From: an uncultured Acidobacteriota bacterium | GTDB lineage: Bacteria; Acidobacteriota; Vicinamibacteria; Vicinamibacterales; CAVVIG01 | Direction: 5' to 3' | DNA: 64,000 nucleotides | Assembly (NCBI GenBank): GCA_963792175.1 | Contig: CAWBVG010000053.1 | Coordinates: 65,013 to 129,012, forward strand | Shown: one piece after another, positions 1,428 to 59,704 of the stretch | Layout of the letters: every line of letters starts with the position of its first letter | Position numbering within the stretch: position 1 is the stretch's first letter | The notes under the pieces: generated by a model | The model's input: the letters and a program-made list of their open reading frames with translations, nothing else | The model's database searches: none | What the model was told of the DNA's origin: nothing | Position numbers and translations under genes: made by a program

Positions 1428-1504
1428 CTCTCGGCTCTCGGCCGTCAGCTATCAGCCCTCAGATCTCAGTTTTCCGAGATCAGCTCTCAGCCATCCGCGA
1501 TCGG
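1428..1504. repeat. Eleven consecutive heptads NNNTCNG (CTCTCGG CTCTCGG CCGTCAG CTATCAG CCCTCAG ATCTCAG TTTTCCG AGATCAG CTCTCAG CCATCCG CGATCGG)
   Basis: Read directly. G at heptad position 7 in 11/11 units and TC at positions 4-5 in 11/11. Embedded 8/10-bp hairpin 1460..1483 with a TTTT loop. Confidence 0.75.
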
Positions 1505-2332
1505 CTGGGCCGGCGCGGACAGCATGACGCGCGTGAGTTCGCCGAGCCGGGCGCGAAACTGATCCGGTGTCCGGCCCGCAAAGGCCAGGAACTCGCGGAT
1601 CATGTGCGACTGATCGAAGTAACCGCCGTCAGACGATACGTCTGCCAGCGGGACCAATGGATCGTCTGTCAGGCGCGCGGCCGCCGCCGTGAAGCGGACC
1701 ACGCGTGCGTACGCCTTCGGCGTCAGGCCGACCTGCTCGCGAAACAATCGTTCGAGGTGACGCCGGCTGCTGTTCGCGACGGCTGCAAGGCGATCGATCC
1801 GGCAGGCGCCGGCGGCGCCATCGATGGCCGCAATCACGGCGTCGACGCGAGCGTCGACGTGCACGGGCTGTCGGGCCACGCGTTCGAGCAGCCCTGCCTC
1901 GAGACAGCCGATCGCCGCCTCAACCGAGGAGGCCTCCCGCGCCGTGCGCACCGTGCGTCGCAGCCAGGGTATGTCGAGGGCGGCGACATCCGCGATGGCA
2001 TCGTCCAAATAGTGTTGAGGAACGCCGAGTAGCGCATAGGCGCCGTTGGGCCGGAAACGCACCGCCGCGACTTCGGCGAGGCCGTCGGGGAGCAGGACGA
2101 CCGGCGATCGCATCGGTCCCACGAAGAGCGTGGACGCCTGACGCTCGCCTGGACCCACCGCCACGAATCGAAAGAACGGACGCTCGCGATGCACGACGAG
2201 CTCGGTGGCGCCGTCGGGCAGCACCGGTTGCGGCGATCCGTCCGGCGCGCGGCCGCACAACGACCAGTACGTCCGCACGAACGGCGCCAGCGCCGGATGC
2301 GGCGGGTACTCGCGGTAGTCCACCGCCGCCAT
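1487..2332 (-). CDS. AraC-family transcriptional regulator
   Basis: ORF 1487..2332. C-terminal double HTH (RRHLERLFREQVGLTPKAYARVVRF, GYFDQSHMIREF). The last ~6 codons lie inside the heptad repeat 1428..1504. Confidence 0.8.
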   Translation of the reverse strand: MAAVDYREYPPHPALAPFVRTYWSLCGRAPDGSPQPVLPDGATELVVHRERPFFRFVAVGPGERQASTLFVGPMRSPVVLLPDGLAEVAAVRFRPNGAYALLGVPQHYLDDAIADVAALDIPWLRRTVRTAREASSVEAAIGCLEAGLLERVARQPVHVDARVDAVIAAIDGAAGACRIDRLAAVANSSRRHLERLFREQVGLTPKAYARVVRFTAAAARLTDDPLVPLADVSSDGGYFDQSHMIREFLAFAGRTPDQFRARLGELTRVMLSAPAQPIADG

Positions 2333-2341
2333 TCTATCGGG

Positions 2342-2812
2342 CTACTTCGGCGCGGTGTCGCACGAAACGCGCACCATCGGGAACTCGATGCGGCGCCCCG
2401 CCGCCCCTTCGCCGCCGTCGATCCACGCCAGCAGTCCGGTCGGCGTCGCGCGATACGCCACGCGCTTCGGGAAATCGTGAGTGGGATTGGCGAAGATCGC
2501 CTCGCGGGCGTTTCCTCCCGGCACGAGCTCGAATGCCGTGACCGGGTTCCCATTCGGCTGCGCCAGGTAGACAAGCTTTCCTTGCCGGACCTCCACGCGC
2601 AGGAACTCGAACTCCGTCACCTTGCCGGCGCGCAGCGAATAACTCATGCCGAACATGACGTCGTCGCTCGCCTTCGTCCACGATTCCCAGGAAGTTCGCT
2701 CGCCGCCCTGTGTCGTCCAGCAGCCGATCATCCAATCGAGCGCCTTCACGTTCGGCGGGGGTTGAGACGGCTGTAACGCGATGACGATCAATGCGACGGC
2801 TGCTGGAATCAT
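2342..2812 (-). CDS. Exported protein of unknown function (DUF6265-like by recollection)
   Basis: ORF 2342..2836. ATG 2812 is preceded by GGAGGAG. Signal/anchor MIPAAVALIVIAL. No catalytic motif recognised. Confidence 0.45.
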   Translation of the reverse strand: MIPAAVALIVIALQPSQPPPNVKALDWMIGCWTTQGGERTSWESWTKASDDVMFGMSYSLRAGKVTEFEFLRVEVRQGKLVYLAQPNGNPVTAFELVPGGNAREAIFANPTHDFPKRVAYRATPTGLLAWIDGGEGAAGRRIEFPMVRVSCDTAPK

Positions 2813-2923
2813 GCGCTTCTCCTCCGCGACTGGCACCGGCGCGACAACGGCGCGGCCCCGTGCAACTCGGGGAACGATACCGCAGCGCTCGGCAGGCGGT
2901 CTTGGACAAATGCGACGTGCCGA

Positions 2924-2990
2924 GAGGACTCGGGGACTAGGGGACTGCGGGACTCGGAGTCCCCGATGTCCACCGGTCCCTCAAGTCCCA
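2924..2990. repeat. Dyad of four GGGGACT-type octamers followed by four AGTCC-type units
   Basis: GGACT at 2926, 2934, 2942, 2950. (A)GTCC at 2958, 2968, 2976, 2985. Centre at 2957/2958. Lies in a divergent promoter region. Confidence 0.7.
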
Positions 2991-3065
2991 CTCTCTTCCT
3001 CAGGAGCGAATCGGAGTCGATCCTGACCAGAGCGTTCAGCGGCCGCATGCTAACGTGACAGCCCC

Positions 3066-4464
3066 ATGGCCGTGATGCCGGCGGCTTCACTCGACAGGGT
3101 CGCAGCCTGTGACTCCGGCGATCCGTACCTGCTCACGCCTCACGCGATCGAAGCGCCTCCGACATCGGTCGCCGCCTCTTTGCGCCGAGTCGGCCCCGGC
3201 ATGGTCCTCGCCGCCGCCATCGTCGGATCGGGCGAACTGATCGCGACGACAACGCTGGGCGCGCAAGTCGGCTTCGCCGCGCTGTGGATCATCCTGGTCA
3301 GCTGCGCGATCAAGCCGGTCGTTCAGGCGGAGTTGGGCCGCTACACCATCGCCACGGGACACACCGGCCTCGAGGGGTTCGACCGCATGCCTGGGCCGCG
3401 CCTCGGCGTCAGCTGGCTGGTGTGGGCCTGGGGCATCACGGTCGCGCTGACGCTGCTGCAAGTCGGCGGGATGTACGGCGGGGTCGCGCAGGTCCTGCAC
3501 CTGCTGGCCCCGGCGATCCCGCTGAACATCTGGGTGGGGATTTGCCTCCTGCTCACCATCGCCATTCTGCTCGGCGGAGGCTACGAGCGCATCGAGAAGC
3601 TGGCCATCGTCAAGGTGGGATTCTTCACGATGCTGACGGTCTGCGCCGCTGCGGTGCTGCTGCGGTCGGACGCGGTGACGGCCAGCAATCTCGCCGGCGG
3701 GCTGAGCCTGCAGCTGCCGGCCGCGGGCCTCGCCACGGCGATTGCCGTGTTCGGGATGACCGGTGTCGGCGCGACCGAGCTGGTGCAGTACCCGGTACTG
3801 GTGCGTCGAGAAAGGCTACGCGCGGTTCGTCGGACCGCGGGATGGATCGGCGGCCTGGACTTCGCGCGCCCGCGGCTGGATCCGTGTCATGCACCTCGAC
3901 ATCGCGTGCTCGCTCGTGATTTATACCTTGGCGACGGTCGCCTTCTACCTGCTCGGCGCCGGCGTGCTGCATCGGATGGGCGCGGTGCCGGCGGAGCGTG
4001 ACACCGTGCGAGTGCTGTCGCAAATCTACACGCAAACGCTCGGCGACTGGGCGCTCTGGCTGTTTTACGCCGGCGCCGTCGTGACGCTGTACGGGACGAT
4101 TTTTGCCGCGACGGCCGCCCACTCGCGGCTGTTCGCCGACGCGATGCGCATCGGCGGCATGTTCCAGCGCGACGACACCCGCAGGCGCCGGCAATGGCGC
4201 AACAGGTTTCTCGTCGCGCTCTCGGTGATACCCGCCGTGTTCTACTGGTTCATCGAATCGCCGGTGCAGATGGTGCTGGCCGGCGGACTGGCGCAGTCGG
4301 CGCTCCTGCCGCTGATCGGCATCGCCTCCTTGTACCTGCGGCACACCCGCCTGCCCGCCGATATCCGCCCGTCGATCGCCACCACCGTCATGCTGTGGAT
4401 CGCGACCGTGGTGATGACGGGGTTCGCGCTCTACTACGTCGCGGCGCGAGTGGGCGTGTTGTAG
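3066..4464 (+). pseudogene. NRAMP-family divalent metal-ion transporter, frame broken once
   Basis: ORFs 3066..4001 and 3763..4464 join as ..GVGATELVQYP / YWCVEKGYARFVGP.. with one extra G near 3795. Multi-TM pattern throughout. Confidence 0.85.
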
Positions 4465-4542
4465 TCCGCACACAGAGACACAAGCAGAACACGGAATGAC
4501 ACGCGTCGCGCGCGAGTGTGACGTCACGCGCCGGCCCGTCCT

Positions 4543-5478
4543 CACGATCGGCGTGATGGTCACTTTGCGATACGTCACCTTCTCGTGGTCCCCCTGGATC
4601 ATGATCGGGCCTGGCTCGGTTTCGGCCGCATCGAGTGCGCCGCCCGTGATCGCTTCGAGCGTGGCATTGTCGTGCACCTTCTTGCCGTTCAGGACGACCG
4701 TGACCTTGTTGCCCACGAGGGTCGCGTCCATCGTCTGCCATTCCCCGGCAGGCTTGCTCGCGTTCACCGCCGGGGCCTTCCACGCATAGATCGACATGTG
4801 CCCGTGCGTTTCTGGCGGCTTGCCATAGTCGTCGAGCACCTGCAGCTCATAGCGCCCCCGCAGGTAGATGCCGCTGTTGCTGTTGGTCTCGAGCTTGTAC
4901 TCCGCGTGGATCTTGAAGTCCTGGAACTTCTGCTTCGAGACCAGGTTGTTGGCGTGCGGCGTGTTCGTCATCGCGCCGTCGACCACCGTCCAGCCGGACG
5001 GCTTGGTCTGGTCCTGCACGCCCCAGGCATCCATCGACGTGCCGTCGAAGAGGTCGATCGGCTTGCCCAGCTTGTGCGGCGCGTTGGCGTCGGACGGCGG
5101 CCACTTCGGCGGACGCGCGCCGGTGAACTCGATCGTGCGCGCCGGCGTCTTGATGGTTCCGGCCAGCGTGGTTCCCTTCATGCGCGCCCGATACTCCGGC
5201 GCCGGACCGCGTGCAGGCGCCGTGCCCTGGAAGAACAGCTCGCCGTTTTCGACTTTCACCGTGGCGAGCTTCACCGGGCTGCCGCCGCGATTGAGGAACA
5301 TCCCGGTCAACTGTCCGCCTTCGTCCTTGATCTCGAGCCAGTAGATGCCGCCGTCAGGGCCGATGCCGGTGAGATTCCAGCGACCGAGGTACGGATTCTC
5401 GGCGGCGATTGACGCGACGGCCGACGCGATAGCAATCGCGGCGACCAGGGCAACGCAATAAGTGGCGTGACGGCTCAT
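4543..5478 (-). CDS. Secreted DUF1080 / 3-keto-disaccharide hydrolase family protein; expected stop codon missing
   Basis: Inside ORF 3625..5604. ATG 5478 with GGAAGG SD, followed by a signal peptide. ..NSGIYLRGRYELQVLD..IMIQGDHEKVTYRKVTITPI matches the family C-terminus. There is no in-frame stop near 4543, so the ORF runs on antisense to the NRAMP gene. Confidence 0.75.
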
Positions 5479-5491
5479 GTAATCACCTTCC

Positions 5492-6251
5492 TTATCCGCG
5501 GCCAATGAACGGCATCTTCGTCGCCATGACCGTGATGAACTGTACGTTCGCGTCGAGCGGCAGGCTCGCCATGTACACGACCGCCTTCGCGACATGCTCG
5601 ACATCCAGGCGCGGCTCCGCCGCGGTCTGACCGTTGGCCTGCAAGACCCCGTCGGCGAACGACGCCGTCATGTCCGTGGCGGCATTGCCGATGTCGATCT
5701 GCCCGCACGCGATATTGAATCTCCGTCCGTCGAGCGACGTCGACTTGGTGAGCCCGGTGATGGCGTGCTTGGTGGCGGTATAGGGCGCGGAGTGGGGACG
5801 CGGGGTATAGGCTGAAATCGATCCGTTGTTGATGATGCGTCCGCCCTGCGGCTGTTGATCCTTCATCATGCGAAACGCCTGCTGGGTGCAGAGAAACGCG
5901 CCGGTCAGGTTGACATCGACCACCGACTTCCACTGCTCGACGGTCAACTCCTCGAGCGGCACGCCACGCGTCGCGATGCCGGCGTTGTTGAACAGCACGT
6001 CGACGCGTCCGAAGGCGTCGCGCGCGGCGGCGAACAGCGCGCGCACCGAGGCCGGGTCGGCGACGTCGGTCGGTACCGCGCGCGCGCGGCGTGCGATGCG
6101 GGCCGGCGTCCGCCATCGTCTGCGCCAGCAGCGCCTCGCGGCGGCCGGCGAGGACGACGGCGAAGCCTTCGTCGAGCAGGGCCAGCGCGACCGCCTTGCC
6201 AATTCCGGTTCCCGCACCCGTTACAATCGCCACTTTCGGGGGTGTGCTCAC
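5492..6251 (-). pseudogene. Short-chain dehydrogenase/reductase (SDR), one frameshift
   Basis: [20 protein letters not shown] (ORF 5475..6251) continues in ORF 5492..6217 (NNAG, YTATKHA). Extra base near 6098. Confidence 0.8.
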
Positions 6252-7258: not shown

Positions 7259-8203
7259 TCAGCTTCTCAAATCCGCGTGCAGCGTTTCGAGCAGGTACTT
7301 CTTGTGGGCATTCATGTCCTGCTCGACCGTGCCCTCGCCGGGCCTGGGCGCGTCGAAATCCAGCGTGACCCACCCGTCGTAGCCGCGTTCGCGCAGAACG
7401 CGGAAGAACGCGGGGAAGTCCACGCCTCCCGCTCCGAGGCGCTTATAGAGGTTGACCCGGTTGTGTTCCGCTTCGCTGGGCGCCGGACCTTTCCAGCCGC
7501 TGGCGGTGTTGTATTTGGCCTCCGCGTCCTTGAGATGGATGGCCGCGATCCTCGAGTAGTAGTCGCGAAGACACTTCACGGGGTCGATGCCGCCCAACGT
7601 CGCATGTCCGGTGTCGAGCACGAGATACACGAGTGTGGGATCGGTCATCTCCATCATCATGTCCAGCTCGGGTTGCCGCTCCACGAGCGTCCACGCGTGC
7701 GGATGGAACGCGAACCTGATGCCGGCATCGGCGGTTCGCTTGCCGACCTCATTCAGATTCCTCGCAAGCGTTTTGGCGTTCGCCGGGCTCAGGTTGTCGG
7801 CACTGACTCGCTTGCTCAGATTGACCTTCAGATGCGTGCATCCGAAATGAGCCACGTAACGGGCGCGCGCGGTATTGCTCTCAATCGTCTCCTGCAGCCG
7901 TGAGGCGTCGAGGTACTCTCCGCCGCTGCCGACCGTGCACAGCGCGAGACCGGAGGCATCGAGCACCTTCTTGAGTTGATCGGGCGGCTGCTTGAGGTAT
8001 TGCGGGATGTCATCCTGGAACGGCTCGATGCCGTGGTACCCGTACCGCGCCGCCATCTGGATGCCCGTCTCCGGATGCGGCGGGGTCGTGCGGAACTGAT
8101 GGCCGCTCATGGCGTAGCGCATCTTGTCGCCAGGACGCGCGTACACTCGGGCAGCGACGGCAGCGCCAAGGCCCGCACCGAGGAATTCACGGCGAGTCAG
8201 CAT
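7259..8203 (-). CDS. Tat-exported sugar phosphate isomerase/epimerase (xylose isomerase-like TIM barrel)
   Basis: ORF 7259..8203. Twin-arginine leader MLTRREFLGAGLGAAVA. Barrel motifs HLKVN, FHPH, LDTGH, HLKD. Intact. Confidence 0.8.
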   Translation of the reverse strand: MLTRREFLGAGLGAAVAARVYARPGDKMRYAMSGHQFRTTPPHPETGIQMAARYGYHGIEPFQDDIPQYLKQPPDQLKKVLDASGLALCTVGSGGEYLDASRLQETIESNTARARYVAHFGCTHLKVNLSKRVSADNLSPANAKTLARNLNEVGKRTADAGIRFAFHPHAWTLVERQPELDMMMEMTDPTLVYLVLDTGHATLGGIDPVKCLRDYYSRIAAIHLKDAEAKYNTASGWKGPAPSEAEHNRVNLYKRLGAGGVDFPAFFRVLRERGYDGWVTLDFDAPRPGEGTVEQDMNAHKKYLLETLHADLRS

Positions 8204-8237
8204 GGTGCACCTCCCTGCTCGTCAAGATATACGGACA

Positions 8238-8259
8238 TAGGGGCTAGGGGCTAGGCGGC
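8238..8259. repeat. Half-element: 2.5 tandem copies of AGGGGCT
   Basis: TAGGGGCTAGGGGCTAGGCGGC is the reverse complement of the C-rich word seen at 54654 and 57342. Confidence 0.55.
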
Positions 8260-8371
8260 TCGCTGACCACGGACGTGGGACTGCAGGCGACTGGGGAGCA
8301 GAGGAGGCAGGGGGACGAGAAACGACGATTCCCTCGCCGTTTCCCGTCGGTGTGCGTTCAGATTGTCGCGG

Positions 8372-8948
8372 CTACTGACACGACGCCGCCACGATCTTGC
8401 CCGATTTGACTCGAAGCACCGGTGCGTGGGCATCGGATCCAGCCGCCGGGTCGGTCGACAATGCGGCGTTGTCTTGCGGATCGAGCACTCCGGTCAGCGC
8501 CAGCTTCTTTCCGACGAGCGGGCTCAGCGCGGACGGATTCGCGATGAGGCGATAGGTTTGACCCGACGACCCGCTGGTCGCGGTGGCCGCGTCTGTCGTG
8601 CTCGCGGTGCCTGTCGTGCTCGCAGCGTCGGTCGTGCTCGGTCGCGTCGGCCGGTGCGGATGTCGCGTTTACCAACGTGAACAGGAGCGCAGCTTCATTG
8701 CTGTCGCCGGTCGTGGCTGTTCCGGTCGTGCCTGCCGTGCCCGCGGTCCCAGCCGTTCCAGCCACCCCGGCGGTGCCAGCCAATCCAACCGTCATCACGC
8801 CCTGTTTCAGGCAGCCTGTTACCGTGATTTGCGCTTCGGTGGACGGTGTCGTGCTCTGCGGTGCAGACGACGTCTGCGCGCCAACCACCGTCGCGAAGCC
8901 TACAATCGCTGTCGACACTCCTGTCCAGATCGTTCTCGTCTTCCTCAT
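8372..8948 (-). pseudogene. Small secreted Thr/Ala/Gly-rich protein, one frameshift
   Basis: ORF 8358..8948 gives a signal peptide plus (AGT)n low complexity. The C-terminal ..GQTYRLIANPSALSPLVGKKLALTGVL..VLRVKSGKIVAASCQ is in another frame, ending at TAG 8372..8374. Shift near 8640. Confidence 0.4.
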
Positions 8949-16100: not shown

Positions 16101-16103
16101 CCG

Positions 16104-16487
16104 ATGGACGCACGAAGCCCGGCGACCATCCTGGTCGTCGAAGACGACGAGCCAGCCGCGACGCGCTCTCGCGACGTCTGGAACGCAGAGGCTATCGCAT
16201 CGTGCTGGCGGTCGACGGCCACGAGGCGGTCTCGAAAGGGCCGCTCGGCGTCGCCGGATCTGATTCTGATGGACCTCGGGCTGCCCGGCATCGACGGCTG
16301 CGAAGCGACGAGGCGGCTGAAGGGCGACCGCTCGACTGCGCAGATTCCCATCATCGTGCTCAGCGCGCACGCGATGACCAGCCACCGCGACATGGCGCTG
16401 GCGGCCGGCGGCGACGACTTCGACACCAAGCCGGTGCGGTTCCAGCAGCTGCTCGAAAAGATCTCGGCGCTCATCGCAAAAAACTGA
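16104..16487 (+). CDS. Single-domain response regulator; the ORF is open but its central ~100 nt are out of frame
   Basis: ILVVEDDE ... PDLILMDLGLPGIDG ... GGDDFDTKP. The expected SRDALSRRLERRGYRIVLAVDGHEAV is encoded in another frame between ~16150 and ~16255. Confidence 0.8.
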   Translation: MDARSPATILVVEDDEPAATRSRDVWNAEAIASCWRSTATRRSRKGRSASPDLILMDLGLPGIDGCEATRRLKGDRSTAQIPIIVLSAHAMTSHRDMALAAGGDDFDTKPVRFQQLLEKISALIAKN

Positions 16488-16492: not shown

Positions 16493-16542
16493 CGAAGTCT
16501 CAAGACTCAAGTCTCAACTCTCAGACTGAGCTTGAGACTTCG
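16493..16542. repeat. Hairpin built from TCAAGTCTCA words
   Basis: CGAAGTCTCAAG (16493..16504) pairs perfectly with CTTGAGACTTCG (16531..16542). An inner 8 bp with one bulge extends the stem. Starts 6 nt after the receiver gene stop. Confidence 0.8.
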
Positions 16543-16598
16543 GCGCGCTTCTATAATCGACGGCATGACGAGCCCGGTAGGCGCCGGCGCGTTGCGTT

Positions 16599-19375: not shown

Positions 19376-20482
19376 CTACGGCAGCGGCACGGTCTGGAGA
19401 TTGATGCCGCCGGACGCGCTGCGCGAGATGACGATCGCCGTCGTGTCGTCCAGCTTGTCGAGCTGCTCGACGCCCATCATGCTGGTAACCTTCTCGAACG
19501 GCACACCCGCCGTCTCGGATTCGACCGGCGTCGTGATCGGCTTGGCGGACGCGAACGGCGCCGTCGGAATCTTCATCACGCCGCGGCTGTTGTTCGCGGT
19601 GAGCAGGAATTCCTGCCCACCCTTTCGGTAGACGATCATGTCGAGCACGCGGTTGCCCGCGCCGAACTCGGCGATCGTCGTGCCGCGCACCTTGTCGCCG
19701 GCCTTGAGATCGGCGATCGGGAACTTGACCAGCGGCGTGCAGGTGTAGCCGGCGATCAGATGCTGCTGGTTGTTGATGGTGTACGGGCACGAACGCGTTG
19801 ACCGGCGACCGCGTCTCGACCGCCTTGTGATTGCCGTGATAGATCTCGACGCTCACGCCGCGGTCGACCGTGGCGAACGGATACGGGATCGCGCGAAGCT
19901 TGGACGCGAATTCCTCGTTCGACAACCCGGCGACCCACAGGCGGCCGTCGGCGAACGCCATGTCGGTGACGACCTGGGTGCGCGGATTCTGGGCGCGCCG
20001 CCGCATTCGCCACCGGCGCATTCGGCAGCTCGACCTTCTGGAACTTGACGGTCTGCAGCGAGATGTTCGCGATCTGGCCGGCCCCGTCGATCCGGAACAG
20101 CGCCGGCGCGGCGCCCGCACCCTGTCCGCGCATCACGGAGACGTAGGCATTTCGCGTCCGCGGATGCACCGCGAGATCGGTGACGCTCACCTCGCGCGCA
20201 CCAGTGCCGAGCAGCGCCGCCAGTTTCTCGTCGAGCGCGTCGAGCGCCTTCGCGCCGGCGACGCCGCCGTTGACCTGAGCGCCGAGGTCGAGGGCGAAGA
20301 TCGCCGCGCCCTGGTTGTCCGCGGCGAACAACGTGCCGTCCGGTCCGAACGTCAGCGGTCCAATGGACGCCAGCGCCGGACCCTGACCGGTTGCGACAAC
20401 CGGCACGGCTGAAGACGGCGACAGCGAGGCGAGGATGACGAAGGCGAGCGAGCAACCCGAGTTTCGCGCGGAGGACTCGCAT
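19376..20482 (-). pseudogene. Hypothetical secreted protein (possibly beta-propeller-like), about three frameshifts
   Basis: ATG 20482, MRVLRAKLGLL plus a hydrophobic leader. IGPLTFGPDGTLFAADNQGAAIFALD. Pieces in ORFs 19853.., 19756.., 18939.., 19376... Shifts near 20445, 20000, 19785. Confidence 0.4.
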
Positions 20483-20591
20483 GTGAACGCTCTCCTTTCG
20501 AGAACGGATAACGTTACGCCCCTGAGCTGGCGACGTCAACCATTGGGGCCGGGCACGCATCTGGCATTTCTTCCAGGGCAGGAGGCTCGAC

Positions 20592-21447
20592 ATGTACGGA
20601 CGGCTCATGGTTTCCGCAACAGCCCTGCTGTTCGCTTCAGCTCTGCCATCGGAGGCTCAGACGCGTGCCGGGGCACGCACGGCGCCACCGATTCGCTTTC
20701 AGGAAATGGACCGCAACAACGACCGCGTCGTGACCCGCGCCGAGTGGCAGGGCAGCGACGAATCGTTCCGCCAAAACGATTGGAACGGCGACGGCATCCT
20801 CTCCGGCGACGAAGTCCGCCTCGACGTCAACGAGCGTGCGCGCGGCCGCGACGACTTCTCGTACGACACGCCCGATACGGCTTCAACGACTGGACCCCAC
20901 GCCAGTTCGCGGCGCTCGATCGCAACCACGACGGGCGGATCGCGCGCAAGGAGTGGCGCCTCGATCGCGAGCTGTTCGGTCGCGTCGATCGCAACGGCGA
21001 CAATTTCGTGTCTCGCGCGGAATTCAATCGAATGCCGCAGCAGCTGTTCTCCAGCGCGGACGTCAATCGTGACGGGTTCATCGAGGCGAACGAATGGAGA
21101 GGGGCCCGTGCGACATTCGACCGCCGCGACCTGAACCGCGATGGCCGCCTCACCCGCGACGAATTCGCGGGTTCGGGATCGGTGGAGATACCCGGTAACA
21201 CACCTGTTGGGACGTCCGGTTCACACAGCCCTGCGTACAGCGCCGGCTACGGCCGTGGCGTGGTCGAGGCGCGCGCGCAGGCGCGCGAGGATCGCGTTCG
21301 CAATCAGGGCTACGATCCTGAAGGGCAGCGCGAGCTCGAGACGGCCGATTCGGGATACGACCCGCGGTTTGGACCGAAGGCTGAGTATCAGGCCGGCTAC
21401 CGCGAGGGTGGCGCCGGGGCTACCCCGAGGGCTGGCGCCAGCCGTAG
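20592..21447 (+). pseudogene. Secreted multi-EF-hand calcium-binding protein, two frameshifts
   Basis: Signal peptide, then six DxNxDG-type loops (DRNNDRVVTRAEW, DWNGDGILSGDE, DRNHDGRIARKEW, DRNGDNFVSRAEF, DVNRDGFIEANEW, DLNRDGRLTRDEF). Shifts near 20870 and 21405. Stop TAG 21445..21447. Confidence 0.7.
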
Positions 21448-21495
21448 ATCAGGAGAAGATCACAGGAGATCAGAGAGATCAGGATCCGGATCACG
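21447..21495. repeat. Direct array of GATCA-containing 9-11 nt units
   Basis: GATC at 21447, 21458, 21468, 21477, 21483, 21489. Lies between the EF-hand gene stop and the DUF2207 gene end. Confidence 0.6.
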
Positions 21496-23433
21496 CAGCC
21501 CGCCACCGCCGCCCCCGCCCGAGGAACCACCGCCGGAATCGCCGCCGCTGGACGAGCTCCCTGATGAACTGTCCGAGCCGCTCGATGCCGGCGAGGGTAC
21601 CGATGCGGCCATGCCGGCGGCCGCAACCGACCACGCCGCGCCGCCGCCTGCCCCGCCGGATCGTCCGCCTCCGAACCCGGTCCACTCGGGTGCGGCCGGG
21701 ACGCAGAGGAGTCGCTCTGACGGACGATGACGTGTAGCCGGAATGTCGGGGTCCGTGCCGATCTCCGATTGTCGTGGCCGCCCGCTCGGTGGACCAGGCA
21801 TCCGCCTGTTCGCCGAGGCCGAATGCCAGCACCCACGGGTACCAGTCGTCGCGCAGCGCCGGCTGCGGCCGCCGAAGCTCGGCGCTGAAGAATTCGCGCG
21901 CCGGCCGTCAGCTTCTTTCGCAACGCGACAGCGGCCCGGCTCGGTCGCGATCTGCAATGCCTCTGATCGAAGAGTTCAAGTGACCCACAGCGACAGCGCG
22001 ACGACTCGCCGCCACCATCAGCGGCGAAAGATCGACGTCGCCCCGTGCAACGGAGCGCCAGAGGAACGCCGCGGTCGCCGCCGCGAACGTCATCGCCGGC
22101 AAGAACGAGAGAAGCGCCGCCCCGCGGCCCCAGTCCATTCGCGTCCGAAAGACGACGCCGGCGATTCGCGCGATGCCGGCGACGGCCAGGGCCCCAATGG
22201 CGAGGAACAACGGGTGGGCTGCCATCGGTGCCGCCGAGATACCACGCACCCGCGAGCATGGCGGCGCACGCGAGGAACCAGACGAATGCTCGTCGTCAGT
22301 CCGATCGGCGCGGTGAGTCTCCAGACTCCAGCAGCAGCTGGACGCGTGCGTCGAGCTCGGACCTGATGACCTCTACGGGGTTGAAGCCTGGTCGCTGTAG
22401 TGGCTCCGCACATCTTCGGTGCTGGACTCGGTTCGCCCATCGAAGAACAGCGCGTCGACGAGCGTGCGCTCGTGGCCGTCGAGCGTCGACCAATCCGCCT
22501 TCAACCGGAGCGTCATCGATGGTTTGCCGGCGCCAGAACCGGCCGACTGTCGCTCTCGAGCTTGCCTTCCCTGACCAGCCGCGCGATCAGCGCGACGACT
22601 TCCGGCGTGCCGATGCTGTCATCCCAGGCGGCGCCCACAACCTCGGCCGGGATATTTCAGGATGTGTTCGGCGATCCATCGGTCGTCGATCTGGTCCGTG
22701 GTCACCGGCACGAAGCGGCCCCATGACTCCTCACGGCCAGAAGAATCCCAGCATCGCAAGCGCGGTCGCACCAAGCAGTATCAGCAGCGCCATCGCGATC
22801 GAAGTGCGGCGACGGGCTCCTCCCTGGCCTCCGGCTGACCGCTGCCGACGTAGCGGATCGGAATCGTGAGCACGAAGCGGTGACCCAGCTCGCCAGGCCG
22901 GACGCCACGTAGACCTTCTGCACCTCGGACAGCGGCTGCCATGCCGGATCCAGCGTGAGCCGCAGCACGAAGCTGTCGATGGTCCCGTTGCGATCGGGGA
23001 ACGCAAAGTCGTGTTCGAGCCGTAGCGATCGCCGTCCTTGCGACCAGGACTCCGGAGAGCTGGTATCCAGGATGTAGGTGATCGCCGTGCCGGCGAACGG
23101 CGGGTCCGTGGGCAGCCGGCTCCGCCATCGCAGCGTTCGCGCGTCGGTCCACGCGTAGTCGTCGATGTTGAGCAGGCTGCGATCCTCGTGCAGGTCGCGG
23201 GGCCCGGCGCCGGACAGACGCGAGATTCGGGTGAACGTCAACCGCTGCTGGGGGCGGATGTTGAATTTGCGCTCGCCGCCATTCCAGTCGCCGGTGAAGA
23301 CCATCGCGTGCGTCTCGGTGACACGAAGGCGGCCGGCGGCATCCAGACGGGCCTCGACGTCGAGCCGGTCCCAGTGCAGCTCGCGCTGCGCGAGCGCGAT
23401 GCCCGGCAGCGACAGCATCAGAAGGACGCACAC
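21460..23433 (-). pseudogene. DUF2207-family membrane protein, five or more frameshifts
   Basis: The N-terminal domain is intact in ORF 22702..23433. TM segments and the Gly-rich tail (GGGSSGGGGGGG) are recovered from ORFs 22731.., 22296.., 21908.., 21491.., 21460... Confidence 0.6.
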
Positions 23434-23524: not shown

Positions 23525-23629
23525 CAGATCAAAACACGAAGATCGAAGATCAGGAGACATTTTGGTTTTGTTTTCCCAAAGAGAACTCCTGATCTCCTGA
23601 TCTCCTGTTAGAAATCTCTTGATCTCAAG
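23525..23629. repeat. Hairpin built from GATCAGGAG / CTCCTGATC words
   Basis: GATCAGGAG (23548..23556) pairs with CTCCTGATC (23586..23594) around a T-rich 29-nt loop. Extra copies of the word on both sides. Six GATC sites. Confidence 0.75.
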
Positions 23630-24705: not shown

Positions 24706-24719
24706 CAGACGGCCGGCAG

Positions 24720-24797
24720 ATTGGTGAGTTCGGTGAATTGGTGAATTGAGTGAATTCACACTCACCCAATTCACCCATTCACCAATTCGCCAATTGC
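24720..24797. repeat. Long imperfect hairpin built from GGTGAATT / AATTCACC words
   Basis: Left ATTGGTG AGTTCGGTG AATTGGTG AATTGAGTG. Right AATTCACACTCACCC AATTCACCC ATTCACC AATTCGCC AATTGC. Helices of about 6, 7, 7 and 6 bp. Confidence 0.75.
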
Positions 24798-50034: not shown

Positions 50035-51505
50035 GAATGCTCCCGAGCGCGGGATAAAGACGCGTGTAAGCGGCGTACTGACGGTTCATCGCAGTGACAT
50101 GCGCCGGTCGAGGCTCCGTCACGGTGGCCCGGCGCACCAGAGCATCGCACGCGGCGTCCACCGTTGGCCAGAGTCCGATGCCGACGGCGGCCAGAATCGC
50201 GGCGCCGTAGGCGGCGCCTTCATCGGCCTGCACCGTGTCGACGGTGCGGCCATAGACGTCGGCCTGAATCTGGCGCCACAGCGGCGAGCGCGACCCGCCG
50301 CCGCCCAGCCGCACGCTCTCCAGCGGCAGGTCGAGCTCGGAAAAGATCGAGAAGGTGTCCCGCAGGCTGAACGCCACGCCCTCCATGATCGCCCGGACGA
50401 TGTGGCCGCGCCCGTGATTGGCGGCCAGGCCGGCGAGCGCGGCGCGGGCGTTCGGGTCGCAATGCGGCGTCCGTTCGCCCATCAGATACGGCGCCCACAG
50501 CACGCCGTCGGCGCCGGGCTCGACGCGCGCCGCTTCCGCGGTCAGATCGTCGTACGACACGCCGCCCACGATCTGATCGCGGAACCACTTCAGCGACAAA
50601 CCGGCGGCCTGCGTCACGCCCATCACGTGCCATCGTCCCGGGATCGCATGGCAGAACGTGTGGATGCGGCCGCGAGGATCGGTGGCGGGCCGATCGGTCG
50701 CGGCAAAGACGACGCCCGATGTCCCAATGGTCGCGCTCACCGCGCCGGGCCGTGTGATCCCCATGCCGATGGCGCCGGCCGCCTGATCGCCCGCGCCGGC
50801 GACGATCGGCGTGCCGGCGGACAGGCCGGTGAGCGCGGCCGCCTCGCGGGACACCTGCGCGGCAACCGCCGGCGACTCGAACACCGCGGGCAGCAGGCGT
50901 TCGTCGACGCCCACGGCGTCCAGCATCTCGCGCGACCAGCGCCGGTGCGTCACGTCGAGCATCAGCGTGCCCGACGCGTCCGCGACATCGATTGCGTGCT
51001 CGCCGCTCAGCTGAAAGCGGATGTAATCCTTCGGCAGGAGCACGTGGCGCACGCGATTCCACAGGTCCGGCTCGTGGCGGCGTACCCAGAGGAGTTTCGT
51101 CAGCGTGAAATTCGTGAGCGCGGGATTCGACGTCAGCTGGAGCAGCCGATCGCGGCCGACGGTGTCGTCCAGCCACCGGCACTCGGCCTCGGTGCGCTGA
51201 TCGCACCAGATGATCGACGGCCGCAGGACCGCGCCGGCCGCGTCGAGCAGCACCGCGCCGTGCATCTGTCCGGAGAGACCGATGCACGAGATGGCGTCGG
51301 CAGCGACGCCGGTCTGCGACAGCACCGAGCGCAAGGCGTCCTGCGACGCGCGCCACCAGTCGGCGGGATCCTGCTCCGCCCACGCCGTGCGGGGCGACGC
51401 GAACGGCGCGTGATCCGCCGTCGCCGAGCCGAGGAGCGCGCCATCTTCGCCGAGCAGCAGGGCACGGGTGCCGCCGGTGCCGACGTCAATACCCAGAACC
51501 GGAAT
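50027..51505 (-). CDS. xylB: Xylulokinase (FGGY family); no canonical start codon
   Basis: ORF 50027..51334 continues upstream in frame through [18 protein letters not shown] to a TAG, with no ATG/GTG/TTG in that stretch. ATT 51505 lies 4-5 nt after GGGAGGA. Overlaps the xylA start by 8 nt. Confidence 0.85.
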
Positions 51506-51521
51506 GGTGTCCTCCCGATCA

Positions 51522-51617
51522 GGGTTCTAGAGTTCTAGGGTTCTAGGGTTCACGCGGCGAACGTTGGAACCCGAAAACAGAACTTTGGAACCCTGAGAAC
51601 TCTGGAACCTTCGAACG
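51522..51617. repeat. Dyad of GGGTTCTA octamers (3.5 copies) facing GGAACCC / GAGAAC units
   Basis: GGGTTCTA GAGTTCTA GGGTTCTA GGGTTC, a 15-nt loop, then GAACCC, CAGAAC, GGAACCC, GAGAAC, GGAACC, CGAACG. Confidence 0.75.
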
Positions 51618-54588: not shown

Positions 54589-54607
54589 GTGGTCACCCGG
54601 CCGCTGT

Positions 54608-54679
54608 CGGGGCTGGGGACTGGGGGCTAGCTGCCAATGTTGTTGTCTCTGGACAGCTAGCCCGTAGCCCCTAGCCCCG
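54608..54679. repeat. Hairpin of GGGGCT-type heptads
   Basis: 26-nt arms CGGGGCTGGGGACTGGGGGCTAGCTG and CAGCTAGCCCGTAGCCCCTAGCCCCG pair at 22/26 positions. 20-nt loop. Confidence 0.8.
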
Positions 54680-54690
54680 ATCGTGCCGCG

Positions 54691-57211: not shown

Positions 57212-57302
57212 AGAAACCGTATCAGCAACCTTCTGATCGTCATCGGCGTCTGCGCGCTTGGCCTCAACGCGGCCATCGTCGCGCAGACGCCTTCTGCCTC
57301 TG

Positions 57303-57452
57303 CAGCCAGTCCGCAGCCCCGAGCTCGTCGTTCCGTTTCAACAGCTAGCCCCCAGCCCCGAGCCCCTGTTTCCGTTTTTGCAGCTAGCCCCGAGCCCCTA
57401 GCCCCTGTCTCGTTTTCTGCAGCCGAGCCCCCAGCCCCCAGACCCGACGACC
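57303..57452. repeat. 39-nt tandem repeat, about 3.8 copies (CAGCTAGCCCCnAGCCCCnAGCCCCTGTyTCCGTTTTyG)
   Basis: Units start at 57303, 57342, 57381, 57420. Only the C-rich word is present; there is no G-rich partner. Confidence 0.8.
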
Positions 57453-57497
57453 GCGGCCCGGTTCCCCGACGGCGCCGGCCGCGATGCGCTCTTCAAG

Positions 57498-57845
57498 GTG
57501 TGCAAGGACTGTCACGGCCCGGAGAGTGTCCTGGCGCAGCTGAAGTCGCGCGACGAGTGGAGCAAGACGCTCGACGAGATGGCGGCGAACGGCGCGCAGG
57601 GCAGCGACCAGGAGTGGACCGACATCCTCGAGTACCTCGCCAGACACTTTTCACCGATCGCGGTGAACAAGGCGACCGCGACGGAGCTGGCCGCCACCCT
57701 CGATGTGCCGGCTGCCGTCGCCGAAGCGATCGTGCGGGCCCGCACCGAAAAAGGACGCCTGGCGTCGATTGACGATCTGAAACAGGCAGCCGGCGGCGAG
57801 GCCGCGCCGAAGATCGACGCGCGAAAAGATCGGCTCGTTTTCTAA
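57498..57845 (+). CDS. c-type cytochrome domain plus helix-hairpin-helix protein; true 5' end unresolved
   Basis: The ORF begins inside ..ALFKVCKDCHGPE (CxxCH). C-terminal ComEA-like HhH (TELAATLDVPAAVAEAIV, RLASIDDL). A leader-like segment lies upstream in another frame (about 57221..57290). Confidence 0.6.
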   Translation: MCKDCHGPESVLAQLKSRDEWSKTLDEMAANGAQGSDQEWTDILEYLARHFSPIAVNKATATELAATLDVPAAVAEAIVRARTEKGRLASIDDLKQAAGGEAAPKIDARKDRLVF

Positions 57846-57846
57846 C

Positions 57847-57921
57847 GCCACGAAGACACGAAAGCACCCTCGACAAGCTGGGATATGCATTATGGTGAGC
57901 GTGTCGAACCGTCTTCGTGGC
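57847..57921. repeat. Hairpin with CACGAAG-family stem
   Basis: GCCACGAAGAC (57847..57857) pairs perfectly with GTCTTCGTGGC (57911..57921). 53-nt interior. Confidence 0.7.
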
Positions 57922-57940
57922 TAACCCGACGGAAGAAACC

Positions 57941-59593
57941 ATGCGCAGAATCACTGTCTGGACCGTTCTCCTGGCGTGCCTCGCCATCCTGCCGCTGCGC
58001 GGCGCCGAGTGGGTCACGCACAGCGGCGACAATCAGCGCACCGGCTGGCAGAAGAACGAGACCGCGATCTCGAAGGACTCGGTCAAGAACCTGAAGCTGC
58101 TGTGGAAGATCACGCTCGACACCAAGCAGCGATCGGTTTACTCCCTGTACGGTCCGCTGATCGTCGAGCGCGCCATCACGGACCGCGGTTTCAAGGAGCT
58201 GGCGATCGTCGCGGGCGCCGACAACGATCTCTTCGCCGTCGACGCGGACCTCGGCAAGCTGTTCTGGAAAAAACATTTCGAGTGGCACGCGGACGTGCCC
58301 GAAACCACGCAGGCGTCGTTTCTCTGTCCTGGCGGGCTGACAGCGTGGCCGGTGCTTCAGCCACTGCCGCAGCGAGGCCGCGGCGCACCCGCGCCGCCGG
58401 CCGCGCCCGCACCGACTCCGCCCACAGCAACGACGACGGCCCCGGCTGCGGCCGGACCACAGCGAGGCGGCAGTCCCTTCGCGGTCCGCTCGGTGTTCGC
58501 GCTCACCGGCGACGGCAACCTGCAGCAGGTGAACATCAACACCGGCGACACGGCGCCGCCGGTCAAGTTCCTGCCGCCCAACGGCAAGCCGTACAGCCTC
58601 GCGCTGGTCGACAACATCATCTACACGATCACCGGTCAGGGCTGCGGCGGGAACCCGAACAGCGTCTATTCCCTGGACCTGAACGATCCGGCGAAAACGG
58701 TGCGCTACTGGCGGTCGGGAAGCGGCGGGTTGTGGGGCACCGCGGGTCCTGCGATCGGCGCCGATGGAACCGTGTACGCGGAGACTGGCGACGGCCAAAC
58801 CGATCCGGCGGCCAACCGTTACGCCAACGCGGTGATTGCGTTGACGCCCAAGGAATTGAAACTGAAAGACTGGTATGCGCCGACCAATGCCGAGTGGCTC
58901 TACAAGCGCGATCTCGACATGAACGTCACGCCCGTGGTCTTTCCGTACAAAGGCCGCGAGCTGCTGGTCGGCTCGGGCAAAGAAGGGCGTTTCTTCCTGC
59001 TCGACTCGCAGTCGCTCGGCGGCACCGATCACCGGACGCCGCTGTTCCGATCCGATTTGATCTCGAACGAGGACATCGACTTCGCCGGCGCCGGCACGTG
59101 GGGCAGCCTGTCGTCGTGGGAAGACGCGCAGGGGACGCGCTGGGTGCTCGCGCCGGTCTGGGGGCCGAAGCATCCGAGCGCGACGTTCGCGATGAACAAC
59201 GGCGACGCCAACGTCGGCAGCATCGCCGCGTTCAAAGTCGAAGAGAAGGGCGGCAAGCCGGTCCTCACCAACGCGTGGATTTCCCGAAACCTCATGACGC
59301 CGGCGGCACCCGCGGTGGCCAACGGCGTCGTTTTCGCCCTGGCGAGCGGCGAGTGGGTGCGCCAGGCGAACGATCGAGAAGGCGGCCTGTATCAGGTGGA
59401 TGCCCGCGTGCAGCGATCGCAGCCGGCCATCCTGTACGCGCTCGACGCGGCCACCGGCAAGGAACTGTGGTCGAGCGGCAGCCAGGTGACGGCGTTCACG
59501 CACAACGGGCAGCTGACGATCGCGAACGGGCGCGTCTACTTCACGACCTACGACAACACGCTGTACTGCTTCGGCTTCCCGATGGAACACTGA
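57941..59593 (+). CDS. PQQ-like / BamB-like beta-propeller repeat protein, intact
   Basis: ORF 57917..59593, ATG 57941 leader MRRITVWTVLLACLAILPLRGA. HSGDNQRTGW. Pro/Ala-rich insert. Confidence 0.7.
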   Translation: MRRITVWTVLLACLAILPLRGAEWVTHSGDNQRTGWQKNETAISKDSVKNLKLLWKITLDTKQRSVYSLYGPLIVERAITDRGFKELAIVAGADNDLFAVDADLGKLFWKKHFEWHADVPETTQASFLCPGGLTAWPVLQPLPQRGRGAPAPPAAPAPTPPTATTTAPAAAGPQRGGSPFAVRSVFALTGDGNLQQVNINTGDTAPPVKFLPPNGKPYSLALVDNIIYTITGQGCGGNPNSVYSLDLNDPAKTVRYWRSGSGGLWGTAGPAIGADGTVYAETGDGQTDPAANRYANAVIALTPKELKLKDWYAPTNAEWLYKRDLDMNVTPVVFPYKGRELLVGSGKEGRFFLLDSQSLGGTDHRTPLFRSDLISNEDIDFAGAGTWGSLSSWEDAQGTRWVLAPVWGPKHPSATFAMNNGDANVGSIAAFKVEEKGGKPVLTNAWISRNLMTPAAPAVANGVVFALASGEWVRQANDREGGLYQVDARVQRSQPAILYALDAATGKELWSSGSQVTAFTHNGQLTIANGRVYFTTYDNTLYCFGFPMEH

Positions 59594-59620
59594 CAGCTGC
59601 CTGCAGTGCCCTGTCCGATG

Positions 59621-59704
59621 GCCACGATAAGCCACGAAAGCACGAAAGATCAGCTAGCTCTCGAGAGATGCTCCGTATCTTCGGTGTTTTCGTGTTTTCG
59701 TGGC
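59621..59704. repeat. Hairpin with CACGAAA-family stem overlapping the FGE translation start
   Basis: 59631..59648 pairs with 59687..59704 over 18 consecutive pairs (16 Watson-Crick plus 2 G-U). An extra GCCACGATAA word sits at 59621. Confidence 0.8.

Follow-up and report, generated by a model that had tools for sequence, protein, structure and literature searches.

We analysed 64,000 nucleotides (positions 65,013 to 129,012 of contig CAWBVG010000053.1) from an uncultured Acidobacteriota bacterium of the order Vicinamibacterales; this whole 64-kb stretch, with a G+C content of 65–70%, is called the window below. No tRNA genes were found in the 64-kb window. Its genes include those for a pyrroloquinoline quinone (PQQ) dehydrogenase, an outer-membrane barrel, an FGGY kinase and a small secreted c-type cytochrome, and its spacers carry elements in which tandem copies of a 7- or 8-nt word are followed by tandem copies of the reverse complement of that word (tandem-word hairpins). 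These elements occurred in excess of chance, formed word families, turned over among relatives, changed by slippage within their arms and held a characteristic position relative to genes.

By protein-anchored searches the window was of Vicinamibacterales type, within the uncultured Acidobacteriota. The nearest species-representative genome was a groundwater metagenome-assembled genome (MAG), L001, in which the best protein segment was 78% identical and synteny with the window spanned 12.6 kb. Soil metagenome contigs of the Joint Genome Institute (JGI) carried an orthologous protein 92–99% identical to that of the window. Gene context was taken from Pfam matches on the flanking open reading frames (ORFs) and from an open-frame test on G+C at the three codon positions (GC1/GC2/GC3), in which stop-to-element distances above 40 nt were not visible. 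This context was used in place of an ad hoc codon-usage gene caller, which was unreliable in places.

Tandem-word hairpins in the window

The initial annotation described 14 or more spacers made of a run of one word and then a run of its reverse complement, sometimes with only one half present. By direct reading of 15 sites, the sequences it named were found in place and the dyad arrangement was confirmed, with 1424–1510 and 8236–8260 as one-sided arrays (Table 1). The number was too high: 9 or 10 sites were hairpins and 2 or 3 were half elements, and the remainder did not qualify. Elements were called with a detector that looked for Tandem Repeats Finder (TRF) arrays with periods of 7, 8, 10 or 11 and accepted those that had a reverse-complement partner, gaps allowed, no more than 140 nt away. 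This detector called seven loci in the window (16495, 23540, 24720, 34036, 51521, 54609 and 59621), whereas 40 dinucleotide shuffles averaged 0.125 and never exceeded 2; the sites at 2926 (partner score 10.5) and 26734 (score 11) were marginally below its cut-off. A stricter ungapped detector called five loci; in 100 dinucleotide shuffles it averaged 0.47 and reached 3 at most. By either count the dyads were well above the dinucleotide-shuffle rate. The predicted RNA folding energies of the seven strong dyads were z = -4 to -9.7 relative to shuffles.

Furthermore, 1.31 Mb of protein-anchored acidobacterial loci gave 20 calls, about 16 of them convincing, compared with 3 in shuffles. Element density varied by lineage, with 7–9 per 64 kb in the window and 4 per 22 kb in L001. 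Detectors based on exact k-mer chaining or on paired TRF arrays were dropped because the copies are degenerate and most elements were missed. Period-6 and period-9 repeats (84 versus 38 in shuffles) were excluded because coding periodicity swamps them, and single-linkage clustering of the word vocabulary was discarded when it chained unrelated words together.

In favour of chance or an assembly artefact, some of the listed sites are weak (8236 and 60698) or are coding repeats (21446 and 57303), and at low stringency short-period repeats are frequent in shuffles too. The detector counts, however, were far above those of the shuffles. In addition, the elements were present in many independent assemblies, among them short-read MAGs, long-read MAGs and JGI metagenome contigs, with orthologous copies in more than 10 independent metagenome or MAG assemblies, and therefore they are not assembly artefacts. 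The same design also occurs in published complete genomes (PMC2700814, PMC4692102). For the strong elements this explanation is refuted, and its overall probability is negligible.

Table 1. Sites of word repeats in the window, with predicted RNA folding (z) and neighbouring genes; E numbers are element labels
Position	Label	Strand	Feature	z	Gene context
1424-1510			One-sided array, about 12 heptads (GCNNTCA on +, TGANNGC on -)	-2.6/-2.8	Covers last codons and stop (1487-1489) of AraC-type gene 1487-2332(-)
2924-2995			Weak dyad, GGGGACT x4 then AGTCCC-type words	-2.7/-2.3	Apparently divergent genes 2334-2909(-) and Nramp-like 3066-4001(+)
8236-8260			One-sided array TAGGGGC x3, no hairpin	-0.5	About 35 nt 5' of start (8203) of xylose-isomerase-like TIM-barrel gene 7259-8203(-)
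16493-16545			Clear dyad, (C)TCAAGT x4 then CTTGAGAC	-4.9/-5.9	Begins 6-7 nt past stop of response-regulator gene 16104-16487(+)
21446-21493		+	9-nt periodic coding repeat, non-member, no hairpin		In frame in EF-hand ORF 20435-21730
23525-23610			Clear dyad, GAAGATC/GATCAGGAG then CTCCTGAT x3	-4.7 on - strand	Right arm touches stop (23608-23610) of DNA-ligase C-terminal ORF 23608-24093(-)
24720-24795	E7		Strongest octamer dyad, GGTGAATT x4 then AATTCACC x4	-9.0/-7.9	Flanked by stop of ORF ending at 24851(-) and start of ligase ORF 24124-24774(-)
26689-26762			Weak dyad, TCAAGTC/GACTTGA family	-1.8/-2.0	Adjoins stop (26763) of ORF 26763-29354(-)
34035-34121	E9		Clear CACGAAG/CTTCGTG dyad	-4.9/-6.6	Outer-membrane barrel stop (34139) and PQQ-dehydrogenase start (34014), both -
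51521-51610	E10		Clear dyad, GGGTTCTA x4 / TAGAACCC-type	-6.6/-4.8	Two - strand genes; about 10-20 nt 5' of FGGY kinase start
54607-54680	E11		Clear dyad, GGGGCT[AG] x3 / TAGCCCC x3	-9.7/-8.3	- strand genes; 10-12 nt past stop at 54691, 19 nt ahead of start at 54588
57303-57447		+	AGCCCC[CGT] heptads with 39-nt higher-order repeat; coding linker, non-spacer		Within cytochrome gene 57225-57845
57847-57921	E13		Weaker dyad, CACGAAG family, GCCACGAAGAC ... GTCTTCGTGGC; 1-2 words per arm, 50-nt loop	-2.6	Begins 2 nt past stop at 57845; likely ATG of next gene at 57941
59621-59705			Clear CACGAAA octamer dyad	-3.6/-4.0	Begins 28 nt past stop at 59593
60698-60765			Degenerate CGCGAAGAT-type repeat, weak partner	-2.2/-1.0	Between convergent genes

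The repeat at 21446–21493 is in frame with the EF-hand ORF by arithmetic from the ORF start and is therefore most likely coding. The membership of 60698–60765 in the class is doubtful; this site was conserved in L201, and its left part was gone in L231.

Word families and turnover of orthologous spacers

The words had been described as locus-specific, which the data contradicted. Within the window CACGAAG recurred at 34035, 57847 and 59621, TCAAGTC at 16493 and 26689, and GGGGCTA at 8238 and 54608 as well as in the coding repeat at 57303; several words were also found in other genomes, and orthologous spacers may hold different words. Among the members of the families that the annotation had drawn up, 57303 is coding, 21447 is most likely coding and the copy in the 60700 area is only weakly structured. 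Altogether the window holds at least seven word families in 64 kb.

The CACGAA[AG]N word, in which seven positions are conserved and the eighth is free, was followed into other genomes. The pattern TTTCGTGNTTTCGTGGC retrieved more than 118 loci, many with the complete hairpin GCCACGAAAnCACGAAAnCACGAAA-loop-TTTCGTGnTTTCGTGnTTTCGTGGC. One MAG held at least six copies of the CACGAAA-pattern hairpin at unrelated loci, and six of these aligned over a 64-nt unit with the sharp ends GCCACGAAA...TTTCGTGGC and unrelated flanks, which is the signature of a dispersed repeat family. This recurrence within one genome, with shared ends, is strong evidence for repeat families. The 8-kb loci fetched by the CACGAAA pattern, which are no unbiased sample, contained 32 further hairpins with other words, including ATCGGGTA at three loci, ATTTGAGG, GAACTTA, ATTGCAGG and others. 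The word GGTGAATT, present once in the window, was found in tandem arrays at more than 119 loci spread over many phyla, and the order of the arms was the same in many genomes. Viral contigs gave 12 single matches, which we judged to be no more than chance level for a collection of unstated size. Literature string searches for CACGAAA arrays gave no match.

Orthologous spacers differed in their content among relatives. L001 lacked the 34035 element; there the stop of the outer-membrane-barrel gene overlaps the PQQ-dehydrogenase start in the sequence TGATG. At the same junction, stop and start overlapped or were at most 2 bases apart in five further lineages without the element (TGATG, TAATG, TGACATG), and seven lineages carried CACGAA- or CACAAAGG-type elements. 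The L001 element GGCTGAG/CAGCCAT (8596–8677) was lacking in the window; the GCTGA[GT] family to which the window array at 1424–1510 belongs forms this dyad in L001. At 51521 the L198 spacer contained a one-sided TAGAACC array, and that of L201 an element of the ACGGAG/CTCCGT family, 304 nt long. The orthologues of the 54607 element in L200 and L201 kept its words, with the L201 loop reduced almost to nil, and in the 54607 spacer of L198 a complete CACGAAA hairpin was nested in the loop of the GGGGCT hairpin.

The spacers around the gene at 57917–59593 were compared in twelve metagenome relatives. Orthologues of the 59621 hairpin had 1–3 words per arm and two unrelated loop sequences, and one orthologue had lost the left arm and the loop. 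The loop of the 57847 hairpin was short in most relatives and held an insert of about 45 nt in the window, L196 and L199. The whole hairpin was absent from L228 (protein 96% identical), L212 and L218, in which the stop-start gap was 11–22 nt. The insert (57868–57905 in the window) is promoter-like, TCGACA-17-TATGGT. It resembles a conserved promoter-like motif, CTTGATG-17-TATGGTCTCGCC, which relatives with a protein about 80% identical carry 5' of this gene.

Across orthologues the number of words ranged from 1 to 4 per arm and some copies had lost one arm, in agreement with the slippage invoked by the initial annotation. In L240 (4747–6480), an insert of 1.66 kb was found exactly between the arms (AAGTCTG)5 and (TCAGACT)6 of a tandem-word hairpin. 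It encodes an IS110-family transposase (PF01548), and no other transposase was found between two arms. The insert carries 11-bp inverted repeats of its own, ATGGCTGTCAC/GTGACAGCCAT. These repeats lie inside the loop, and therefore the insertion sequence (IS) entered the hairpin and used the loop as its insertion site. Gain, loss, replacement, nesting and IS targeting are the behaviour of miniature mobile repeats, or of repeats like the repetitive extragenic palindromic (REP) sequences, and not of separate local inventions.

Generation of each word in place, in line with the generating mechanism that the initial annotation had offered, was weighed against these data. In that case a word would expand by slippage, a fold-back template switch would invert the array and selection would act on structure only, leaving words arbitrary and locus-specific. 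The variable copy number, the single arms, the large variety of words and the failure to find a dedicated transposase or target duplication in the fetched loci all agree with such an origin, and the arm polarity reported below (84/101; 23 versus 1) could reflect which nascent strand folds back. However, unrelated loci of one genome share a word together with its unit ends and related loops, and words recur at three or four loci of the window; the orthologous 51521 spacer exists in three states, one of them with an unrelated word family; and a complete CACGAAA unit lies nested inside another element. The arms are, moreover, not exact complements (G opposite T), which means that copying of one arm from the other is not what keeps them alike. 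The 64-nt unit at six unrelated loci, the replacements at 51521 and the nested CACGAAA unit contradict the proposal that every word arose where it stands, and we regard local generation as unlikely.

Position between genes, arm polarity and pairing

In the window the dyads lay between genes of the same strand, with 2924 as the sole exception, and began 0–28 nt past the upstream stop, with the exception of 24720 (55 nt). The elements at 24720, 34035, 51521, 54607 and 57847 ended 15–25 nt ahead of the next start, and this distance therefore leaves no room for a new promoter. Among 62 elements from all fetched loci with both flanks assigned, 52 (84%) had co-directional neighbours, 7 lay in convergent and 3 in divergent gene pairs, and the upstream stop was mostly 0–20 nt from the element within a view limited to 40 nt. 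The location near stops between co-directional genes noted in the initial annotation was thus borne out in the larger set.

Elements that start 0–20 nt past stops, 7 of 62 of them between convergent genes, could be the intrinsic terminators of this lineage, that is, long hairpins that halt RNA polymerase without a U-tract, possibly in both directions. A scan of 40 kb of the window for canonical hairpin-plus-T sites showed no excess over shuffles (8 versus 9.8 and 10 versus 11), so that something else must end the transcripts, and in the CACGAAA family, with its A-rich 5' arm and U-rich 3' arm, the inner registers resemble stems followed by U-runs. Against this, 84% of the elements are inside co-directional pairs, the 15–25 nt before the next start in the window leave no promoter room, several 3' arms hold the start and first codons of the next gene, and most words yield no U-tract. 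The ancestral junctions, furthermore, had stop and start overlapping or at most about 20 nt apart, which implies operons. In the 40-kb scan no dyad was called as a stem with a T-run, and the sole call that touched an element was a small antisense stem overlapping the 5' end of 16493. The elements are thus outside the definition of Rho-independent terminators (a G+C-rich stem and a U-tract at the end of a transcription unit), as the annotation had held on the grounds of the missing T-tract, and a terminator function of the unorthodox kind seems improbable.

The order of the arms was unexpectedly regular. The 5' arm was purine-rich in 84 of 101 elements, and arrays of AATTCACC were downstream of GGTGAATT arrays at 23 loci and upstream at 1. 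Since the hairpin reads alike on both strands, this polarity does not come from the direction of replication or transcription as such. Possible causes are that the C-rich arm is not to be exposed first in nascent RNA, or that fold-back copying has a strand bias.

Eleven orthologues of the 59621 hairpin were aligned. The hairpin consists of three 7-bp helices separated by single unpaired columns, and these columns are the free eighth position of CACGAA[AG]N. At the seventh word position, AU, GU and GC pairs form a series in three equivalent places, and the alignment contains 13 G-U cells compared with 1 A-C cell. This excess fits pairing in sense-strand RNA and not in DNA or antisense RNA; because the aligned sequences are related, the pattern is suggestive and does not amount to a formal test. 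Among the 52 co-directional elements, G-U pairs numbered 164 on the sense strand and 119 on the antisense strand. The sense-strand AU-GU-GC paths and this G-U excess are in accord with the selection for structure that the initial annotation had named as one option.

A word with seven conserved positions and a free eighth would also be expected of a repeated recognition site with a spacer base, and the arm order is fixed. The elements would then be DNA-level arrays of sites for a nucleoid or regulatory protein, of the integration host factor (IHF)/HU type or another, with incidental hairpin potential; the same proposal accompanies the same design in the Geobacter metallireducens paper, where IS elements stand at a fixed distance (PMC2700814). 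Yet at least seven word families in 64 kb would need as many proteins, the sense-strand G-U substitutions point to RNA pairing, and the free eighth position is explained just as well by being the hairpin's unpaired column. No candidate protein was identified, and the elements are dispensable among close relatives. We therefore consider protein-binding arrays to be quite improbable.

Relation to known repeats and overlap with gene ends

Rfam gave no matches at gathering thresholds in the 64-kb window. A permissive search gave chance-level matches only; the sole match to an element with E<5 was at 34035–34121, to the model of a microRNA hairpin (26.6 bits, with a cut-off of 92), and is due to chance. 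No Rfam family thus matches the elements. They are also distinct from CRISPR arrays, as had been noted, with a period of 7–8 nt and no spacers compared with the CRISPR definition of 24–48 nt repeats and unique spacers. An attC or integron-cassette reading was rejected on account of the large syntenic housekeeping-type genes and of ends without an inverse-core/core pair.

Tandem heptamers are reportedly known from cyanobacteria as short tandemly repeated repetitive (STRR) sequences since work by Mazel and colleagues in 1990. The window word GGGGACT is a rotation of the reverse complement of STRR1, CCCCAGT. Each arm of the elements agrees with the STRR heptamer-class definition, and the dyad arrangement goes beyond it. 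In Xanthomonas there are 70–75 convergent inverted pairs of GGGAATC arrays capable of forming stem-loops, and Nostoc carries repeated heptamers of the form GGGGA(C/T)T (Rehm et al. 2015, PMC4692102). For heptamer arrays in Nostoc a regulatory role has been suggested (bioRxiv 10.1101/2022.06.06.494920). Beggiatoaceae carry TAACTGA direct repeats, and heptamer arrays are common to Beggiatoaceae, cyanobacteria and Bacteroidetes (PMC4679880). All of these resemble the present elements as non-coding tandem heptamers whose copy number varies between relatives, and in the occurrence of the same heptamer in distant phyla without a known vehicle. Those studies dealt with one or few G-rich words and stressed G-quadruplexes or proximity to start codons, whereas here the words are many, most are not G-rich, octamers are as frequent as heptamers, and dyads just past stops predominate. 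The elements also differ from G-quadruplex-forming repeats of the Xanthomonas type, which have four or more consecutive tracts of at least three G and a preference for four units: only the GGGGCT, GGGGACT and GGGTTCTA arms have G-tracts, usually three, and a G-quadruplex reading was rejected on the basis that most families (CACGAAA, GGTGAATT, TCAAGTC, GATCAGGA) lack them.

The same architecture has been published for the paired hepta- and octanucleotide "global regulator binding sites", classes 1–3, in a supplement on Geobacter metallireducens (Aklujkar et al. 2009, PMC2700814). There, 24, 21 and 8 pairs of 3–5 tandem GTTGCTYN, TCTCCGTS and MTYCTGA words are placed on opposite strands, at least one pair is between the operon genes proB and proA, IS elements occur at a fixed distance, and the authors read the pairs as IHF/HU-type DNA sites. 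As far as that supplement goes, the likeness extends to a tandem array of a 7–8 nt word with an opposite-strand array at variable distance, and to several classes per genome. By published word consensus, TCTCCGTS resembles CTCCGT in L060 and L201, and MTYCTGA resembles CTCCTGAT/TCTGAA in the window and L001. Geobacter belongs to another phylum, and the supplement presents the pairs as alignments only; how they turn over, pair as RNA or lie with respect to stop codons is not analysed there. The view that the design belongs to no named family thus held as far as the name goes, but the design itself had been described, in the Geobacter supplement and in Xanthomonas (PMC4692102). The present analysis adds evidence of turnover and nesting, a rule for the position of the elements, the polarity of their arms and substitutions of the RNA type.

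Among the ideas of the initial annotation, a likeness to REP sequences and bacterial interspersed mosaic elements (BIME) came closest. REP sequences and their inverted doublets, REPINs, are multi-copy extragenic families in which the doublet forms a hairpin of about 100 nt in single-stranded DNA or mRNA and singlets are decayed remnants (Bertels and Rainey 2011, PMC3116915). REPIN doublets are better conserved than singlets. The elements share the extragenic multi-copy families (several in 64 kb, and at least six copies in one MAG), the imperfect palindrome and the location at 3' ends or between cistrons. Hairpin doublets and one-sided remnants also occur among them, but their arms are arrays of tandem words, whereas a REP arm is an imperfect palindrome of 20–40 nt without internal 7–8 nt periodicity. 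Elements of the IS110/IS1111 type target REP sequences, and the IS110-family element in the hairpin loop of L240 is a further likeness. One end of the REP palindrome is reported to carry, usually, a GTAG or CGTC tag (Di Nocera et al. 2013); no such tag was visible at the ends of the window elements, and the six-copy unit has ends of its own. A REP-associated tyrosine transposase (RAYT) was sought by tblastn, with one RAYT sequence as query, in 4.4 Mb of fetched loci. One acidobacterial Y1_Tnp gene was found, at 2–600 of L274 (PF01797, E 8.5e-9) in a Vicinamibacterales MAG, and its neighbours are classical REP palindromes, CCGCC-AAAAA-GGCGG and GCTTCCGCC-TGA-AGGCGGAAGC, both of them repeated. 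The Vicinamibacterales therefore have ordinary REP/RAYT systems alongside tandem-word hairpins. The REP-like idea was accordingly kept, without the REP tag and the RAYT.

The elements also differ from miniature inverted-repeat transposable elements: the arms are long inverted repeats and there is no consistent flanking direct repeat. In Drosophila and other eukaryotes, foldback (FB) transposons end in long inverted repeats made of tandem short sub-repeats, with a sub-repeat number that varies between copies and a loop that is variable or absent and may carry foreign sequence. They differ in being eukaryotic and kilobase-scale, with sub-repeats of 10–31 bp, and no homology is implied.

On balance, we lean towards the interpretation that the elements are dispersed REP- or STRR-like foldback repeats that are carried in operon mRNA, form imperfect stem-loops and evolve by slippage in their arms. 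A unit is about 60–110 nt long and has a 5' arm of 2–5 tandem words of 7–8 nt, usually purine-rich, a variable loop, and a 3' arm with an equal number of reverse-complement words. Co-transcribed with the flanking genes, it would form a long imperfect stem-loop in the mRNA, with 7-bp blocks parted by single mismatches. Such stem-loops may shield the 3' end of the upstream cistron, as enterobacterial REP/BIME hairpins do, or serve as a processing or weak attenuation point; where the 3' arm covers the next start codon, initiation may be occluded or coupled. Replication slippage within each arm would create the word periodicity and keep it uniform, and selection at the RNA level would maintain pairing between the arms. 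Much of the abundance of the elements may nevertheless be selfish or neutral.

Several observations weigh against this interpretation. Co-transcription, folding in mRNA and a REP/BIME-like role are inferred, and an effect on transcription or mRNA is deduced from position alone. The bias towards sense-strand stability was modest (sense more stable in 28 and antisense in 20 of the 52 co-directional elements; Wilcoxon p = 0.066), the two strands were about equally stable in the window elements, and many arrays are one-sided and unable to fold. Presence and absence among near-identical relatives means that no single copy is essential. No mobilising enzyme and no conserved terminal tag were found in the fetched loci, and no RAYT flanked by tandem-word hairpins was found in the 4.4 Mb. 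No consistent target-site duplication was seen when filled and empty sites, or the flanks of aligned units, were compared. In the neighbour-joining tree of the PQQ-dehydrogenase junction, filled and empty states interleave, and the resolution of the tree is too low to tell repeated gain from a gain combined with recombination or loss. Finally, the recurrence of words across phyla was dropped as proof of a shared family: it is weak evidence because chance matches are expected (about 280 for a 16-base pattern in the 596-Gb collection, both strands) and because any word recurs if arrays are common.

A broader proposal, which we put forward tentatively and consider doubtful, is that tandem-word foldback hairpins form an unnamed class of miniature mobile DNA in many phyla. 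Structure-directed copying would place them behind stops and into hairpin loops and rewrite gene ends (stops, C-terminal tails, starts and signal-peptide segments), and in mRNA they would form register-tolerant stem-loops whose 7-bp blocks, parted by mismatches, evade double-strand-specific nucleases. If the interpretation as dispersed repeats is true, the spacers of soil bacteria carry a common class of repeats unrecognised by annotation pipelines and Rfam, in Acidobacteriota and, from pattern scans, probably in Planctomycetota, Gemmatimonadota and Bacteroidota. The repeats would mark operon junctions, change fast enough for strain typing and attract IS elements; they would alter coding ends by providing stop codons, C-terminal extensions, start codons and signal-peptide repeats; and the scattered and so far unexplained reports of heptamers and octamers in Geobacter, Xanthomonas, cyanobacteria and Beggiatoa would be tied together. 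The finding is descriptive and computational, and the function is proposed. It makes tractable the question of what generates and spreads hairpins with tandem-word arms, mostly with the purine-rich arm first.

Several arms overlapped coding sequence. The ORF upstream of 51521 runs into the element and stops at 51550–51552, and in L198 the first GGGTTCTAA word of this spacer provides the stop codon of that ORF. Within the 3' arm at 59621 there appear to lie, in all close relatives, the GTG start of the next gene (59684) and seven initial codons of its lipoprotein signal peptide. The 3' CCTTTGTG arm of L255 and L295, with GCCTTTGTG words at period 9, encodes Ala-Phe-Val repeats within the signal peptide of the PQQ dehydrogenase. 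These repeats stand about 100 nt 5' of the mature N-terminus, and at the matching position L257 has a one-directional array of the 9-mer GTGCCTAAC in frame with the signal peptide. At these three loci, repeat arms seem to have been taken over into coding sequence. As a unifying property of the elements, stop codons in all frames were rejected, since CACGAAA/TTTCGTG arrays have no stop codons.

The N-terminus of the window PQQ dehydrogenase, MRRRGHRRPALLAADVND (33976–34014 on the - strand), is without a hydrophobic signal-peptide core, and relatives without the 34035 element keep such a core (MKKVLGAAALCSALVTALVAAD in L001). Part of the sequence encoding the signal peptide seems to have been replaced when the element was acquired. 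The Pfam model of the FGGY kinase, taken from the start at 51334, was matched only from position 56; the frame stays open as far as 51526, and an ATT codon near 51504 follows a GGGAGG Shine-Dalgarno sequence, which points to a non-canonical start right after the hairpin (51490–51526 on the - strand).

The repeat at 57303 encodes the Pro/Ala-rich linker of the small secreted c-type cytochrome (57225–57845, + strand), which consists of the signal peptide GVCALGLNAAIVAQTP, the AGCCCC-heptad linker and then a CKDCH haem motif. In six relatives the linker is in frame, with 120–207 nt between the signal-peptide and haem-motif anchors. In the window the linker has 247 nt (1 mod 3), which puts the haem domain out of frame, and the gene could be a pseudogene, a phase-off variant produced by heptamer slippage, or an assembly error. 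Its start codon seems non-canonical.

Minor features were noted elsewhere in the window. The ATP-dependent DNA ligase beside the 23525 and 24720 elements appears split into two ORFs, 24124–24774(-) with the adenylation domain PF01068 and 23608–24093(-) with the C-terminal domain PF04679, which are separated by a 30-nt gap; the split may be a frameshift or nonsense change. Next to 2924, the Nramp-like ORF (3066–4464, + strand) matched its Pfam model over the first half only and overlaps an opposite-strand ORF, 3625–5604(-), with a 3-keto-disaccharide hydrolase domain. A second + frame, 3763–4464, scores as coding in this region, which suggests a frameshifted transporter gene or mis-set starts. 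Lastly, an 18-nt repeat (x2.9) at 8589–8640 and a 9-nt repeat (x6.1), CGTGCCAGC, at 8727–8781 lie where ORFs overlap on both strands without a Pfam match, and both are probably coding low-complexity repeats.

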